A DNA stretch of 46,343 bases from Candidatus Nomurabacteria bacterium RIFCSPLOWO2_01_FULL_41_18 (GTDB lineage: Bacteria; Patescibacteriota; Minisyncoccia; Phycocordibacterales; UBA9973): the NCBI GenBank assembly GCA_001785865.1, contig MFUZ01000008.1, positions 1-46,343 of the forward strand, in the 5' to 3' direction. The notes beneath the pieces were generated by a model. It had not been told where the DNA came from and ran no database searches. It saw only the letters and a list, made by a program, of their open reading frames with translations. The position numbers were made by a program, and so were the translations under genes. Each line of letters starts with the position of its first letter. Position 1 is the stretch's first letter. Below are positions 24,394 through 31,106 of this stretch, in pieces.

Positions 24394-24501
24394 CCCGTTA
24401 CGAAATAAACGCGGACACTAGAGTGACGCATCTATTTTTATTATTACTAAAATTTATTAATAAGGTCATATATGTTATATGTGTCCGCGATTTCGTACGG
24501 G
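24394..24501 (-). mobile_element. TIR miniature element E4 (108 bp) abutting ftsE start codon
   Basis: CCCGTACGAAAT...ATTTCGTAACGGG-ATG; subterminal CGCGGACAC/GTGTCCGCG inverted repeat; no clean duplication. Confidence 0.8.
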
Positions 24502-24502
24502 A

Positions 24503-24763
24503 TTATCCCGTACAGAACAGGAAGCGCTTTAATCGTTGCTTGAGATACAATTTGCCCCTTCCTGACTTCAAATACAATTCTCGGTTCCTTGCGTCATGCT
24601 CATCCAAACACGCTTCATAGTATATTATCTTAAAGGGGCCTCGTCCTTTTGTATATAGAGATTTACCCTCAGTATGTTCTTTGAAGCGCTTCCGCAAGTC
24701 ATTTGTGTAACCTGTATAAAACTTACCGCTTTTCTTACTTTTTAATATATAAGTATAAAACAT
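24503..24763 (-). CDS. Small GIY-YIG nuclease ending in a TIR
   Basis: FYTYILKS...FYTGYT, RE..LKSG; last codons TGT ACG GGA TAA come from the TIR. Confidence 0.85.
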   Translation of the reverse strand: MFYTYILKSKKSGKFYTGYTNDLRKRFKEHTEGKSLYTKGRGPFKIIYYEACLDEHDARNRELYLKSGRGKLYLKQRLKRFLFCTG

Positions 24764-24790
24764 GGCAAGTTCTGTTTGGGAGCACCTCTC

Positions 24791-24823
24791 TATTATATCA
24801 TGGTTCGGAATTACTCACCATGA
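24791..24823 (-). repeat. 33-bp hairpin repeat carrying a -10 box, copy 1
   Basis: TCATGGTGAG-N6-CGAACCATGA-TATAATA; differs from 38447-38479 only in the 6-nt loop. Confidence 0.75.
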
Positions 24824-25926: not shown

Positions 25927-26367
25927 TTAATCTTTAATATATCTAACTTCATTTGAAACCATTTTCTCTGCTTTAAAATCTTCTCCCAAACTCTTAGGAA
26001 GAATGCGAATATCATCAGTCGGGTTCACCCAAACTATTTCAGCAATTTCGCTAGAATGGGAACGAGCAAATTTTTCAATATTCAAATAATCATTTCCATT
26101 TTTTACCTCAAAGAAAAACTCCACATATTGCTTACCATCTGTTTGTGTAAAATTATTTATATAAAACAGCCTGCCTATCTCTGGTTTTACCCCCAGCTCT
26201 TCAATTATTTCCCGAGACAAACATTCTTTGATATCTTCTCCCCACTCTAAATGACCACCCGGAAGCGCAGCAAAGCTTGTGTCGTGAGGATGTCGCACAG
26301 CCAAAAGCTTCCCTTCGTGTAAAATAATCGCTCGAACTTTAATAATAATTTTTTTATTATTTTCCAT
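25927..26367 (-). CDS. NUDIX hydrolase
   Basis: GGHLEWGEDIKECLSREIIEELG Nudix box. Confidence 0.9.
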   Translation of the reverse strand: MENNKKIIIKVRAIILHEGKLLAVRHPHDTSFAALPGGHLEWGEDIKECLSREIIEELGVKPEIGRLFYINNFTQTDGKQYVEFFFEVKNGNDYLNIEKFARSHSSEIAEIVWVNPTDDIRILPKSLGEDFKAEKMVSNEVRYIKD

Positions 26368-26468
26368 ATTTTTATTGTATCACAATTTTATTTCCTTTTT
26401 TGTCGACTTTACTAAACTAAAGTACTTTAGTTTAATAAAGTAGCTGGGGTATTAGGGATATACTTATA

Positions 26469-26492
26469 CGAATACGTATTCGAATACGTATA
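26469..26492. repeat. Two tandem 12-bp units CGAATACGTATW
   Basis: Direct reading; preceded by ATACTTAT as at 30302. Confidence 0.7.
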
Positions 26493-26583
26493 TGAATATT
26501 TACCTGCCGTTAGTGGGCGTATAAATCCCCTGCCGTTTTTAATTTCTAGCATCTATAGCAAGAACCGTTCTTGCTAATTAAAA

Positions 26584-27627
26584 TTATCTAGAATTTAGAA
26601 TTACCTTACCAAGCTGTTTCGCAAATATAGGTGGAACCGCATTGCCAATCATTCTTGCAATATCAGCTATGCTTTTAGCATGAAAAACATAGTTTTTAGG
26701 AAAAGTTTGAAGTGTTGCACCTTCCCGAAGAGAAATGGCTCGATTTTCTTGAGGATGGGCAAACCTTCCGTTAGAAATACTAAAAAATTTTGTTGTTATT
26801 GTTGGAGCAGGCTTATTCCAAGACATTCTCCCGTAATTATCTTTAAAACCTTGTCCTCTGTAAGATTTTCTTTTTAAATCTTTATTTTGTGCCCAATCCA
26901 ACCATGAACCACCATTCTTTTGAGTTTTCTTTAATCTATCTATATTTTTTTGAGTAAGCCCAGCAACACTATGATTAAAAATGGAGTCGTCTTTGTGTCC
27001 AGCTTTTATCCGAGCAAAACCGTTACTAGAACCAATAAAATCTTTTACTAGTGCTTTTTTACTTTTCTTATTTTGAAGAGAAATCTTATTCTTTGACAGC
27101 CGAGTTGCAATAAGTGAAAATCTTTTCCTAGATTGAGGAATACCGTAGTCATTCATATTTACTATTTCATAATGAACACTATATCCTTTTATTTTTAAGC
27201 TTGTAACAAAATTATCTAAACCACTTTTATCTTTTTTACCTAAAATTCCAGGAACATTTTCTACTAAAACATACCCAGGGTTAAAGTAATCAACAAATCT
27301 TTTAAATTCCACGAGAAGATTTTTTGATTTTGCAGATTTTGTTTTGTCAGTTCTTATGATTGACCAAAATTGGCAAGGACTACATCCTATCATAACCAAA
27401 TTATTATCATTTTTTTTCAACCCTAACTGTTTTTCCAAGTCTTGTTCTTTTAACTTAAAAACATCCGCAAGAATGAATTTTGATTCCGGATTATTTCTTT
27501 CATAAGTATCTTTACAAGCTGGATCATTATCAATTCCTGCAATAACATCTATGCCTGCCTGCCTAAGCCCGCAAGTCATACCACCCCCTGAACAAAAGAA
27601 ATCTATAGCTTTAATTTTCTTTTTCAT
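26584..27627 (-). CDS. dcm: DNA (cytosine-5)-methyltransferase
   Basis: FFCSGGG motif I, SPCQ motif IV, ENV motif VI, GNAVP motif X. Confidence 0.92.
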   Translation of the reverse strand: MKKKIKAIDFFCSGGGMTCGLRQAGIDVIAGIDNDPACKDTYERNNPESKFILADVFKLKEQDLEKQLGLKKNDNNLVMIGCSPCQFWSIIRTDKTKSAKSKNLLVEFKRFVDYFNPGYVLVENVPGILGKKDKSGLDNFVTSLKIKGYSVHYEIVNMNDYGIPQSRKRFSLIATRLSKNKISLQNKKSKKALVKDFIGSSNGFARIKAGHKDDSIFNHSVAGLTQKNIDRLKKTQKNGGSWLDWAQNKDLKRKSYRGQGFKDNYGRMSWNKPAPTITTKFFSISNGRFAHPQENRAISLREGATLQTFPKNYVFHAKSIADIARMIGNAVPPIFAKQLGKVILNSR

Positions 27628-27664
27628 TAATATGTTTATTATAACATTTAATTACCTAAATAAT

Positions 27665-29680
27665 TTATTCATTATCAAAGCTAAAAGCAATAGCATAGTT
27701 GCCTTCTGGAAAACGTATTTGTGGCAACCATATTTCTTCACCTTTATGACTTGGTTTTAATTTATACATAAAAAGTGTTACAGCGTCTTCAGGTACTAAC
27801 TTATCCTCACCTCCAGAATAATATCCCTGAGTTTCCTTACGAGGCGCGTTAAGATTAAAGCCTCTTTTAACCCTAATATAGGCTTTTTTTCCTCTCAAGG
27901 TTTTTATTTTTTCAAGTGCTGCTCTTAGAATTTTAAGGTTCCATAATTTAGCACCTTCTTCTGGATCGTGAGCACATTTCTCTATTATTTCTATAACAGA
28001 ATCAATGTCTGTTTCATGATAATTTTTAACACTATCGTAACTAGCTAATTTATTATCTAGCCACTTTGTTGATGTTTCTGTATCTTTAGTACGAAGAGGA
28101 TACCTTTGGTTACACCACCCTCCCGCAACATAAATACCGATTGAGTTTGTATCTAAAACATTAGACCGGGTTGTTTTTAAAGGGGAAGAAATGTAAATAC
28201 CCTCAAATTTTCCTTCAGGATGTTTTTCAATTAGCTTTCTTAGGGCTTTTTCCATTTGATGAATTATGCGAAAATGTTCTGCTAACTTTTCAGGTAAAAA
28301 TAGGCGTGTTACCCCAATATGTCTTTCACGATATCCATACATACGTGCGTGTTGAAGTACCGTATCAGAATTTGGATGCTTGGGATTTCTTCCGTAATAG
28401 CTAGTAATAAGATTAGGAATAGTTACACCTCTACCAAGTTTATTGCCACCCACAAAAATACTATATACATGATCTAGCGTAATGGCTTCCTCTGAATTTG
28501 AATTAATTTCTTTTATGCTTGCTCCAGGTAGAAGAAACTCAATTCGTTGGAGTATTTTTTCAAATTCTGGAAGTACTGGTTCGGTCTTAGTAATGTCATT
28601 ATAGGCAACAAATAATTCGTCTCTTAATTTTTTAAAGGCAGTGGAATCTTTATTTTTAAATGCAATTACAATATCTTCTCTGAAAGAATCAATAAGATTT
28701 ACAACATGTTTATGATCAACTTTAGTATGACTAATGTGGCAAAGAAAGGAGAAATTTTCACTAGGATAATTAATATTTCTAGCCGTAGCAGCAATTAAAA
28801 AACTTAGAACAGCTTCTTTTAATCCTACTGGTATTTTATGTGTTGGATTTGGTTGAAAACCAGATTTTAATTCATCAACTTCGTCTATATCAACGTTACG
28901 CAAAAGTTTTGATTCCGATTCAAAAAATGCTTCGCCACCTATATAGCCTGGTCCTGGTTCACTTAAAACTGTAAACGAGGGACGGTAAAGTCCATTTGGC
29001 GTTTGTAAGAATAGAGCCTGCGGAGTTGCTGTTACTTGAAGATATGTATTGATTTGGAAAAACTGCCTTATTTCAGTTATATATTTATTTATAGCACTAA
29101 GCTCCTCAGTTCTTTTTTTAGCATTTTTATTTGTTTTAGTATTTAAGCTTGCCTGGTCAGCCTCGTCATCAATTATTAAAGTAGGAAGACCACGAGATCC
29201 ACTAGATCCAACTTTTTTAAAAGCATCTATTAAATTTTTTAGATGACTTGAATTTTTTGAACAGACAATAGCGAAAGGAGACATTCTTATTTGTCGTTCA
29301 AATCTAGGAAGGTCTTCCCAGTCTGACTTGCCGAGAACAGTTAATCCTCTAAGTTGACTACGAATTCTCTGAAGTGTTTGTCCATATAAAAGATTTATGT
29401 CGGAAGTTAATATGATTATACATTTAAAACCATTATCAGCAGCCATTGCAGTTGTTACAGTAATGATACTGGTTTTACCACTTTGAATTAAACCGTAAAG
29501 TAAGCCATAACTCGGTTCTGTTGATCCAGCAATTGGATCCACTGCATAACCTAAAATTTTACCAGCACGTTCAACAATTGCATGTAAAGACGCTTCTGTT
29601 TTTATTTCATTGGAAAGAACATCTAAAGCTTCTTTAGTTTGCAAGCCATCGTGAATTATTTTTCTTGAGTTTATTTCCAT
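27665..29680 (-). CDS. SF2-helicase/Z1-domain putative restriction protein
   Basis: GLIQSGKT Walker A, DDEADQAS Walker B, VGGNKLGRGVTI, QHARMYGYR. Confidence 0.8.
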   Translation of the reverse strand: MEINSRKIIHDGLQTKEALDVLSNEIKTEASLHAIVERAGKILGYAVDPIAGSTEPSYGLLYGLIQSGKTSIITVTTAMAADNGFKCIIILTSDINLLYGQTLQRIRSQLRGLTVLGKSDWEDLPRFERQIRMSPFAIVCSKNSSHLKNLIDAFKKVGSSGSRGLPTLIIDDEADQASLNTKTNKNAKKRTEELSAINKYITEIRQFFQINTYLQVTATPQALFLQTPNGLYRPSFTVLSEPGPGYIGGEAFFESESKLLRNVDIDEVDELKSGFQPNPTHKIPVGLKEAVLSFLIAATARNINYPSENFSFLCHISHTKVDHKHVVNLIDSFREDIVIAFKNKDSTAFKKLRDELFVAYNDITKTEPVLPEFEKILQRIEFLLPGASIKEINSNSEEAITLDHVYSIFVGGNKLGRGVTIPNLITSYYGRNPKHPNSDTVLQHARMYGYRERHIGVTRLFLPEKLAEHFRIIHQMEKALRKLIEKHPEGKFEGIYISSPLKTTRSNVLDTNSIGIYVAGGWCNQRYPLRTKDTETSTKWLDNKLASYDSVKNYHETDIDSVIEIIEKCAHDPEEGAKLWNLKILRAALEKIKTLRGKKAYIRVKRGFNLNAPRKETQGYYSGGEDKLVPEDAVTLFMYKLKPSHKGEEIWLPQIRFPEGNYAIAFSFDNE

Positions 29681-29689
29681 AGTATAAAT

Positions 29690-30118
29690 TTAATACTTAA
29701 CTACTTCAGATACAATATTAGACCATCTTCTGACTGAAACCTTACCCTTAAGTTTAGAAATAGACCCTGCAACTCCGTAACTTTTATTATGCTTTCTTTG
29801 TACCGAAATCCACCCAGGATTTGTACTCAAAAGAGATCGAGCTTCCTTCCACGTTAACGCACAAACTCCATCTCCACCACAAACTAAACCTAAAATTACT
29901 GTACTGTATTCTGACTCCATCTTCAAGCATCGATCAATATCTTCTTGGTCAAAACTAAATCTCCAAGGACTTCGAGCTTTTGTGGTGTATTTTAAAAAAA
30001 CAAATACTTTTTCATTAACGACATATCCCAGTAGCCCTTTTTTCTTAACCGAAAAATTCTCGTTTTCAAGTAAAGCTACTATGGCAGCACCGTGATAATA
30101 TTGCAATTTATCTATCAT
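29690..30118 (-). CDS. Hypothetical protein in methylase/Z1 operon
   Basis: 142 aa, co-oriented, overlaps upstream AbrB-like gene. Confidence 0.7.
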   Translation of the reverse strand: MIDKLQYYHGAAIVALLENENFSVKKKGLLGYVVNEKVFVFLKYTTKARSPWRFSFDQEDIDRCLKMESEYSTVILGLVCGGDGVCALTWKEARSLLSTNPGWISVQRKHNKSYGVAGSISKLKGKVSVRRWSNIVSEVVKY

Positions 30119-30299
30119 ATTTTTTCAATTTCCAATCTTTAATTATAATTTTCGTGCCTTCCAGTTTCACCACCACCTTCTGCCTCTCGCGCCAGCCGAG
30201 CTTACGAGCAAAATCGATAGGTAAAGTCACAGCAAGTGATGACTTGCCGACTTTGGTTATCTTCCTTATATTGCTACTGCCAGATTTTGTGATTCCCAT
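30108..30299 (-). CDS. AbrB/MazE-family DNA-binding protein
   Basis: RKITKVGKSSLAVTLP..FARKLGW...VVV pattern. Confidence 0.8.
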   Translation of the reverse strand: MGITKSGSSNIRKITKVGKSSLAVTLPIDFARKLGWRERQKVVVKLEGTKIIIKDWKLKKYDR

Positions 30300-30419: not shown

Positions 30420-30492
30420 AGCCGCCCCCGAGGATCGAACTCGGGACCCCCACTTTACGAAAGTGGTGCTCTACCAACTGAGCTAGGGCGGC
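30420..30492 (-). tRNA. tRNA-Thr(CGT)
   Basis: Cloverleaf, loop TTCGTAA, no encoded CCA. Confidence 0.95.
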
Positions 30493-30503
30493 TTGAATTT
30501 TTT

Positions 30504-30575
30504 TGCTCTACTTCACCCCGCCTAAGTTAGGCGGGGCAAGCTGAGCCCTGCCTGCCGGCAGGCAGGTATAACGGC
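30504..30575 (-). pseudogene. tRNA-Thr 5' fragment with two palindromic insertions
   Basis: GCCGTTATA-[CCTGCCTGCCGGCAGGCAGG 30547-30566]-GCTCAG-[CCCCGCCTAAGTTAGGCGGGG 30516-30536]-AGTAGAGCA. Confidence 0.75.
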
Positions 30576-30592
30576 ATACTACCCAAAAGCCA

Positions 30593-30668
30593 TGGAGCCG
30601 TTAATTGGATTTGCACCAATGACCTTGTTCTTACCAAGAACATGCTCTACTACCTGAGCTATAACGGC
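30593..30668 (-). tRNA. tRNA-Thr(GGT)
   Basis: Cloverleaf, loop TTGGTAA, encoded CCA. Confidence 0.95.
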
Positions 30669-30895
30669 ATTAAACTTTTCAAAAACTCCTTACCAAAACC
30701 CGATTTTAATAATTTCTCTCTCTTTCTTGCCTCTCCACGACTTAAAACTTCTTCTGTATATAACAACTCCCATGGACGATGTATTTTGGTAGAAAAAACA
30801 TATCCACTATTGTGCTCTTTGAATCTTCTCATGAGGTTATTGGTCATACCGACATAAACTCTTTTTTCTTTATTTTTTAATGCATACACTATCAT
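30659..30895 (-). CDS. Small GIY-YIG nuclease whose stop codon lies in tRNA-Thr(GGT)
   Basis: IVYALK...VYVGMT, RE..LKSG; ends ATG CCG TTA TAG; ATG 30895 preferred over 30961. Confidence 0.85.
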   Translation of the reverse strand: MIVYALKNKEKRVYVGMTNNLMRRFKEHNSGYVFSTKIHRPWELLYTEEVLSRGEARKREKLLKSGFGKEFLKSLMPL

Positions 30896-30904
30896 AAAGT
30901 ATTT

Positions 30905-30945
30905 TACCAACTGAGCCCTGCCTGCCGGCAGGCAGGTACAACGGC
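30905..30945 (-). pseudogene. tRNA-Thr-like 5' fragment with 20-bp palindrome
   Basis: GCCGTTGTA-[palindrome 30917-30936]-GCTCAGTTGGTA. Confidence 0.75.
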
Positions 30946-31106
30946 TTATGTTCGCATACAAACATACTAGTTTATCCCCACACCTTTGACAAGGGTAAGT
31001 GTGGGGATTTATTTCTGTATATTTTGTAAAATTAGACTATGGTCATATTTATACATCAAATTTATGAAGTTTGCATTTATAAAGCATCGAGTGATACAAT
31101 AGGGAA

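Follow-up and report, generated by a model that had tools for sequence, protein, structure and literature searches.

In fungal mitochondria, mORFs (for example, in Allomyces atp6) are nuclease open reading frames (ORFs) that insert into an essential gene and supply a second copy of the end they displace; gene function is retained, and the severed end persists as a dead fragment. The REP/RAYT, IS200/IS605 and Rickettsia palindromic elements are short dispersed palindromes, tied to a single enzyme gene, which lack target duplication and are sometimes found in frame. The Ssn nucleases are single-domain GIY-YIG proteins of about 80-95 aa that have no DNA-binding domain (Chenal et al. 2025, Nat Commun, PMC11893778). 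The ssn genes are flanked by a cognate hairpin repeat of 20-50 nt (NTS/SRM), which is also dispersed in the genome and co-varies with the nuclease, and the nucleases act with these hairpins on single-stranded DNA; tRNA is not mentioned in that paper (PMC11893778). The locus described here belongs to a 46,343-nt stretch of DNA (the window; contig MFUZ01000008.1, positions 1 to 46,343) from Candidatus Nomurabacteria bacterium RIFCSPLOWO2_01_FULL_41_18, a genome of 750 kb in 9 contigs (G000), and combines the gene for a 78-aa GIY-YIG nuclease, located at the 5′ end of a tRNA-Thr gene, with a 20-nt perfect palindrome, CCTGCCTGCCGGCAGGCAGG (hereinafter P). With a probability of about 0.7, we consider this locus to be one copy of a widespread selfish, target-faithful module that consists of a GIY-YIG gene at a tRNA gene, displaced copies of the tRNA 5′ end and the partner palindrome P.

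The element order proposed in the initial annotation of the window, namely a P-bearing tRNA 5′ fragment, the GIY-YIG ORF, tRNA-Thr(GGT), another P-bearing fragment and tRNA-Thr(CGT), was borne out on the minus strand, to which all coordinates in this paragraph refer. A promoter-like site, TTGTCA-17-TAGTAT (30964..30992; -10 region ACTAGTATGTTT), precedes fragment 1, which starts with positions 1-9 of tRNA-Thr(GGT) (GCCGTTGTA, 30937..30945; G7, where the live gene has A7), is interrupted by the first exact copy of P (30917..30936) and continues with tRNA positions 10-21 (GCTCAGTTGGTA, 30905..30916), the D-loop being the allele of the same-genus genomes G015, G006 and G021 rather than that of the local live tRNA. 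After a spacer of nine bases comes the nuclease ORF (30659..30895; match to Pfam PF01541), followed by the intact tRNA-Thr(GGT) with an encoded CCA (30593..30668; 63.1 bits in Rfam over 30668-30596, also detected by ARAGORN), a single-copy gene in the 750-kb genome. Fragment 2 begins with positions 1-9 of the same allele as the live gene (GCCGTTATA, 30567..30575) and, past the second exact copy of P (30547..30566), comprises GCTCAG (tRNA positions 10-15, 30546-30541), a second GC-rich hairpin in the D-loop (CCCCGCCTAACTTAGGCGGGG, 30536-30516) and TAGAGCA (approximately tRNA positions 20-26, 30510-30504). As single-stranded DNA, the part of fragment 2 beyond P (30504..30546) is predicted to fold into a single extended D-arm hairpin (z = -4.7); its second hairpin, CCCCGCCT-N5-AGGCGGGG, has just 3 copies in the genome and is found in none of the other loci. 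The intact tRNA-Thr(CGT) (30420..30492; 64.4 bits) completes the arrangement.

In both fragments, P lies between tRNA positions 9 and 10 (the 9/10 bond; other placements are denoted likewise) as a clean 20-nt insert, without a duplicated flank, as had been claimed at the outset. The two exact copies in the window compare with none in 100 dinucleotide-preserving shuffles. The claim that the stop codon of the ORF is part of the tRNA holds as well: the ORF ends with AGT TTA ATG CCG TTA TAG and the tRNA begins with GCCGTTATAG inside this end, so that the stop codon TAG (30661-30659) is U8-A9-G10 of the tRNA and the last three ORF codons, M-P-L, come from the tRNA 5′ end. Because the ORF lies between a native-looking promoter and the tRNA, co-transcription with the tRNA is expected; no intrinsic terminator was predicted at the locus.

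Comparison of the tRNA-Thr loci within the genus, as proposed in the initial annotation, reveals filled sites in G000 and G015 and empty sites in four same-genus genomes (G003, G006, G009 and G021). In the latter, tRNA-Thr(GGT), a spacer of 4-95 nt, tRNA-Thr(CGT) and prfB follow one another, with the prfB ATG overlapping the tRNA end, and these Thr(GGT)-Thr(CGT)-prfB loci contain no ORF, no fragment and no P. Given these clean cassette-less loci, the cassette is an insertion polymorphism that leaves the tRNA intact, which supports the earlier proposal that a nuclease cassette integrates in the tRNA 5′ end and restores the gene. The -10 region of the window is shared with the empty-site relative G009, and fragment 1 therefore occupies the former place of the native tRNA 5′ end. 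In G015, the cassette is found at the same junction: fragment 1 reads GCCGTTGTAGCTCAGTTGGTA[P]GAGCACGTCC..., with P at the 21/22 bond, the ORF product is 62% identical to that of the window and the ORF again ends with TAG = U8A9G10, and the second fragment, which is of the Thr(CGT) type (GCCGCCCTAGCTCAGTTGGTA[P]GAGCACAG), stands right before the intact tRNA-Thr(CGT). In the N-terminal sequence of RNase R, G000 shares 55% identity with G015, less than with any of the empty-site genomes (63-73%), so that a single ancestral insertion would require loss without a scar several times over; separate gains at this site in G000 and G015 are the simpler reading.

The nuclease ORF matches the Pfam GIY-YIG family PF01541 with 56.1 bits (cut-off 22.6, E = 4.8e-15), and among 32 homologs the residues Y4, Y14, G16, R24, H28 and E60 are invariant or nearly so. 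The AlphaFold2 model of the 78-aa protein (predicted local distance difference test score, pLDDT, of 94.8) is a compact GIY-YIG fold (beta-beta-beta-alpha-beta-alpha-alpha) that comprises the catalytic domain alone. In PDB, it is best matched, by sequence as well as by fold, by two stand-alone UPF0213 proteins, EF2693 and BH0048 (top fold hits 1zg2 and 1ywl), and next by the catalytic domain of I-TevI and SLX1. This single domain spans the whole ORF, the length of which is below the 150-aa limit of the Ssn family (cd10448); no separate DNA-binding domain was detected in the 78-aa ORF, and TIGR01453, with a cut-off of 56 bits, reaches just 18.6.

One genome per species was scanned, which yielded more than 577 relatives of this protein, of which the best 80 loci were read; they come from lineages of the Candidate Phyla Radiation (CPR), Bacteroidota, metagenome-assembled genomes of Gammaproteobacteria, Ignavibacteriota, Bdellovibrionota and others. 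Nearly all ORFs at these 80 loci are located 1-30 nt from the 5′ end of a same-strand tRNA, and ARAGORN finds, for most of the loci, the start of a same-strand tRNA between -49 and +90 nt relative to the ORF stop. The initial annotation held that its reading would suffer if homologous nucleases were not linked to tRNA; on the contrary, about 70 of the 86 homologous ORFs adjoin the 5′ end of a live or dead tRNA. The ORFs without a called live tRNA usually border on a P-bearing tRNA fragment or the contig end. The junction is very tight: at most loci, 1-15 nt separate the conserved protein end ...GKEFLKS from tRNA position +1, the ORF stops at tRNA positions 8-10 in about 21 of the 80 loci, and the overlap of TAG with U8A9G10 is the modal arrangement. 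The TAG frame is enriched among ORFs extending into the tRNA (21/38 vs one third expected, p = 0.006, with the loci not being independent), but many other homologous ORFs stop earlier or later than U8A9G10. We read the overlap between the stop codon and the tRNA as a consequence of this tight junction, not a designed feature.

Identical cassettes at two tRNA-Arg copies (L020 and L022) were considered as a possible trace of homing; however, both lie inside a 2.8-kb segmental duplication and thus provide no evidence for it. At eight loci (L005, L006, L016, L018, L019, L046, L062 and L080) the contigs, from other assemblies, end no more than a few hundred bases past the GIY-YIG ORF or the tRNA, as expected if a repeat-rich module breaks assemblies.

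Of the 80 loci, 43 have an exact P, which in the typical case lies 10-55 nt before the start codon, and about 20 more have a variant with 1-4 mismatches; the proteins are only about 55-65% identical. Across 41 relatives of the window's genome, P occurs within -300/+400 nt of all three ORFs with at least 53% identity to the query and near none of the 25 more distant ones. In a phylogenetic tree of 117 ORFs, P lies within 400 nt of 67 of the 85 ORFs in one clade and of none of the 32 outside it (Fisher test, 3e-16); the presence of P requires 10 changes on this tree, compared with 38 when labels are shuffled (0 of 500 shuffles). At the genome level, P was found in 87 (35%) of 251 genomes sampled evenly across the class, representing 69 of 189 genera, with 1-12 copies each, whereas a reversed control sequence is absent from all 251. 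Within this sample, P is present in 24 of the 29 genomes with a nuclease profile hit of at least 100 bits vs 63 of the 222 others (2e-8), and 11 of the 17 genomes with at least 6 copies have such a hit (5.6e-8); the 100-bit threshold is ad hoc, because the non-P paralogs of the window's own genome score about 90 bits, and the A1 profile separates the P clade from such paralogs poorly. P is the specific partner of one nuclease clade and co-varies both with this clade and with the presence of the nuclease in a genome. This partnership, the identity of P in different phyla and its dispersal without the nuclease go beyond the initial annotation.

Within the P clade, the identity of the linked tRNA (72 ORFs with a called tRNA) requires 12 changes vs 37.8 with shuffled labels, and the host phylum, with the CPR collapsed into one group, 16 vs 22.9. 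Bacteroidota, CPR and Ignavibacteriota are intermingled in the Leu-linked clade; the window ORF groups with two Thr(GGT)-linked copies from CPR and one Asn-linked copy, and its product resembles Bacteroidota copies (64%) no less than the same-genus copy (62%). The tree tracks tRNA identity far better than phylum; such a pattern is to be expected of a horizontally moving, target-faithful element, not of a vertically inherited host gene.

The listing of P insertion contexts that the initial annotation suggested identifies two hot spots in tRNA, the 9/10 and 21/22 bonds. At the genome loci, P is nearly always found at 21/22 (...GGTA[P]GAGC...), with a few copies at 26/27, in Leu D-loops and in the T-loop, and the 9/10 placement initially looked rare (0 of approximately 55 copies at genome loci). 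This impression was overturned by a metagenome scan for P followed by GYTCA, which returned at least 120 stretches: among the 82 copies read, at least 41 lie at the 9/10 bond (TA[P]GYTCA); the fragments derive from tRNAs for Asn, Arg, Met, Val, Trp, Thr, Asp, Ile and Ala and have a wide variety of acceptor stems. For at least 9 of the metagenome copies at 9/10, a GIY-YIG ORF starts no more than 120 nt downstream and is followed by an intact tRNA, and one locus (L221) repeats the design of the window, with two 9/10 fragments. The 9/10 placement in the window is less common but recurrent. Both bonds are of the form TA^G and lie at the edge of the D-stem, which supports a real preference of P for particular tRNA sites. 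In five metagenomic sequences of the 9/10 type (L207, L209, L216, L225 and L233), the D-arm after P is remodelled to a short perfect hairpin, GCTCAG-NN-CTGAGC, followed by the complement of the acceptor strand, which yields a compact cloverleaf-like DNA palindrome around P.

P is also found on its own. In G015 and G012, it lies within pseudo-tRNAs that stand alone, at the tips of hairpins belonging to other repeats and perhaps inside ORFs. The third copy in the window's genome, with one mismatch, falls in frame within the RNase R gene (C2:80835-80854), in the segment for its variable N-terminal linker, where it adds LPAGRQG; the nearest orthologs (G018 and G013) lack exactly these 7 residues, a net difference of 21 nt, so that a compensating 1-nt change must have accompanied the 20-nt palindrome.

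The genome encodes four more small GIY-YIG paralogs, two of which precede tRNA genes outside the window. In the cassette at tRNA-Ile(TAT) (C2:35560-36080), the ORF stop TAG is again U8A9G10, and the direct repeats of the tRNA 5′ piece around it carry a 32-nt double hairpin (TCCGCCAGAGGCGGACCAGCCTTTGGCTGAGG, 8 copies in the genome); in that at tRNA-Ala(TGC) (C6:307150-307650), the repeats of the tRNA 5′ piece contain a 36-nt hairpin (CCCTCACATGG...CCATGTGAGGG) on both sides. Different nuclease paralogs thus pair with different hairpins inside one genome. The other two paralogs have neither a tRNA link nor P. One of these, with 86 aa, lies in the window between prfB and ftsE (24503-24763, minus strand; flanks 24394-24800), has inverted repeats (ATCCCGTACGAA / TTCGTACGGGAT) at its borders and ends on the ftsE start codon; its sister precedes rpiB (C6 289015-289233), sits on the rpiB start codon and likewise has inverted repeats at its borders.

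Comparison of the sequences establishes insertion polymorphism at a fixed site with preservation of the tRNA, target-faithful spread across phyla and dispersal of P as a solo 20-nt insert, whereas the cutting and copying steps are ones that we infer. In the scenario that we favour, the nuclease would act like an Ssn-type or structure-specific enzyme: it would recognise the P hairpin, the D-arm DNA of tRNA genes, which is prone to form a cloverleaf, or both, and would cut there. The break would then be repaired from a cassette-bearing copy, with the conserved tRNA 5′ sequence (TAGCTCAG...) serving as homology, and the repair would copy the ORF along with a fresh tRNA 5′ end, such that the essential tRNA is rebuilt and the old 5′ piece is left as a scar, while the ORF runs to its first in-frame stop, often U8A9G10. 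P would land at TA^G junctions by the D-stem (9/10 or 21/22) of the dead fragments, where it should be neutral, and might split the direct repeat formed by the fragment and the live tRNA that could otherwise delete the cassette. A more specific and, in our view, rather doubtful version posits a hitherto undescribed two-component mobile system in which the 78-aa GIY-YIG domain, guided by the P hairpin and the cloverleaf DNA of tRNA genes, would home across phyla with rebuilding of the tRNA and would mobilise P in trans, as the smallest known non-autonomous element, to loop/stem junctions (tRNA 9/10 and 21/22), hairpin tips and protein linkers.

Several observations weigh against a nuclease-driven module with P as its partner. 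The D-arm of the live tRNA is intact in the filled allele, so that simple homing by cutting the empty allele fails to explain how the filled allele would be immune. The support for the P clade is moderate (SH-aLRT, the Shimodaira-Hasegawa-like approximate likelihood ratio test, 82) and derives from 84 alignment columns. Five copies of P are present in G012, which has no GIY-YIG hit, and nine in G027, which has only distant paralogs; viral contigs carry 42 copies on 35 stretches, of which just one is beside the ORF and 41 have no nuclease nearby. Furthermore, the copies of P outside tRNAs share no common flanking sequence, and the identity between fragment and live tRNA to the left and right of P (0.91/0.91 at 9/10, 0.99/0.96 at 21/22) shows no asymmetry and hence gives no signal as to which side of P is borne by the element. 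Phages were also considered as the vector and rejected: there is no homolog of the protein in 50,697 phage records, and on viral contigs P stands beside the ORF once.

Alternatively, P could be an autonomous mini-repeat, akin to REP or Rickettsia palindromic elements, that is copied by another host or mobile enzyme and gathers in neutral, hairpin-prone dead tRNA fragments, the proximity of the nuclease being a by-product. The occurrence of P in 35% of the sampled genomes, many without a strong nuclease hit, in G012 and on viral contigs that lack the ORF, nested in other hairpin repeats at their tips and as an in-frame insert of RNase R is compatible with such a repeat. However, this explanation seems unlikely given the restriction of P to one nuclease clade (67/85 ORFs vs 0/32 other GIY-YIG paralogs) and the fact that the non-P paralogs also reside at tRNA fragments, yet carry other hairpins; moreover, the copy number of P tracks the presence of the nuclease, and neither an HUH/Y1 transposase nor any other candidate enzyme is encoded beside P at the window locus. 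Less probable still, and in our judgement improbable, is the possibility that the host has domesticated the GIY-YIG protein as a factor that is co-transcribed with tRNAs and serves, for instance, in repair, processing or defence, with P as its RNA or DNA regulatory hairpin and neither of them mobile. The location of the ORF between a native-looking promoter and the tRNA, the conservation of the catalytic residues and the view that Ssn nucleases are domesticated (PMC11893778) all fit this proposal, but it is difficult to reconcile with the patchy presence of the cassette within one genus next to clean empty sites, with several paralogs at different tRNAs in a genome of 0.75 Mb, with the existence of tandem copies and pseudo-fragments, and with a tree that tracks tRNA identity and not the host.

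Even for a mobile cassette, the two copies of P in the window could stem from one event, if a single local duplication or gene conversion produced both fragments and carried P along, in which case the shared placement would be uninformative with respect to site preference. The fragments share a direct repeat of 35 nt, P included, that is identical at 34 of 35 positions, which favours one event that was then copied, and duplicated P-bearing fragments around the ORF are also found at L221, L011 and L032. The sole mismatch, however, at tRNA position 7, is exactly the A7/G7 difference between the two tRNA-Thr(GGT) alleles of the genus, and past the repeat the fragments diverge, one continuing with the TTGGTA of the other allele and one with a D-loop that contains another hairpin; together, these features favour separate histories or a short conversion tract. 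Fragment 1, with G7 and the D-loop TTGGTA, represents the allele of G015, G006 and G021, while the live tRNA-Thr(GGT) and fragment 2, with A7, represent that of G003 and G009, which suggests that fragment 1 was not made by duplication of the present live gene, with a possible D-arm contribution from the neighbouring tRNA-Thr(CGT). The leader of fragment 2 is too weakly similar to that of G009 to tell which tRNA copy is the original. Since the 9/10 bond was hit independently in many tRNA species, two local hits are plausible, and we assign to a single copied event somewhat less than an even chance. Accordingly, of the two options in the initial annotation, strict site preference or copying with the fragment, the recurrence of 9/10 and 21/22 favours a preference as such, and the window's own pair of copies may still have been copied with the fragment.

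Two other features of the window are observations in their own right. The only tRNA-Asp(GTC) of the genome (32443-32712, minus strand; 5′ exon GCGGTCGTAGCTCAACTGGTTAGAGCGCGTCCCTGT, 3′ exon CACGGACGAGGTTGCCGGTTCAAGTCCGGTCGATCGCGCA), which ARAGORN misses, is split between anticodon positions 35 and 36 by an intron of approximately 210-230 nt that matches the Rfam group I intron model RF00028 with 38.4 bits (E = 2.4e-7), below the gathering score. Between tRNA-Thr(CGT) and prfB lies an island of approximately 4.5 kb (25927-30299, minus strand) that encodes an AbrB/MazE-like protein of 63 aa, a 142-aa ORF, a 671-aa protein matching the PADLOC model Helicase_II (E = 5e-102), a 146-aa ORF and a 347-aa putative cytosine-5 DNA methyltransferase-like protein recognised by motif reading; because the prfB start overlaps the tRNA 3′ end in G003, G015, G021 and G009, the island looks like an insertion on the 3′ side of the tRNA.

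If the proposed module is real, the small genes annotated as 'GIY-YIG nuclease family protein' in thousands of CPR and Bacteroidota genomes gain a concrete biology: they would be selfish cassettes, parasites of essential tRNA genes that do not kill their target, and would cross phyla while keeping to the same tRNA species. Such cassettes would also account for tRNA pseudo-fragments, for assembly breaks at tRNA loci and for a 20-mer that is identical in a third of the sampled genomes of the class, and would extend the Ssn principle, in which a tiny nuclease is paired with its cognate hairpin, to a further hairpin and a new target; the enzyme and its site may serve as a sequence- or structure-specific tool for single-stranded DNA. 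In the literature searched, neither the 20-mer P nor its 14-16-nt core appears in any paper, and no paper links GIY-YIG, tRNA and Patescibacteria in the sense of such cassettes. The nuclease-palindrome cassette on tRNA genes is thus widespread and apparently undescribed.

Among the known systems, mORFs resemble the cassette in the displaced gene end, but involve the 3′ end of an organellar protein gene, whereas the cassette involves the 5′ end of bacterial tRNA genes and a palindrome. The REP/RAYT and IS200/IS605 elements depend on an HUH/Y1 transposase; P, by contrast, pairs with a GIY-YIG nuclease, is just 20 nt long and is the same across phyla, and the GIY-YIG gene is the only ORF between the two P repeats of the window, with no HUH/Y1 transposase among them. 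The 277-nt insert encodes no tyrosine or serine integrase, and the duplicated part is the tRNA 5′ end, unlike the 3′ end in islands of the integrase type. Like SegB in the tRNA gene cluster of phage T4 (PMC2330249), the window ORF is a GIY-YIG gene at tRNA genes with presence/absence polymorphism and co-inherited flanking tRNA sequence. However, endonucleases of the Seg and I-TevI type exceed 200 aa and have a separate DNA-binding domain, whereas the window protein is a bare catalytic domain that lacks homologs among the phage records and is encoded by an ORF that runs into the tRNA and has a conserved palindrome and tRNA fragments beside it. As with free-standing homing endonucleases, filled (G000, G015) and empty (G003, G006, G009, G021) alleles of one site exist. 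P and the other local hairpins were also assessed as SRMs, but do not match the published consensus: the SRM regular expression has 1 hit in the genome, where shuffles give 2-4, and all five paralogs lack a hit within 500 nt. The closest system in its manner of working nevertheless appears to be Ssn/NTS, with which the cassette shares a tiny bare GIY-YIG nuclease and a cognate dispersed hairpin, here P; it differs from Ssn in that P is a perfect, orientation-less palindrome, identical letter for letter across phyla, and in that genes of the window type are fused to a tRNA 5′ end and accompanied by duplicated tRNA pieces.

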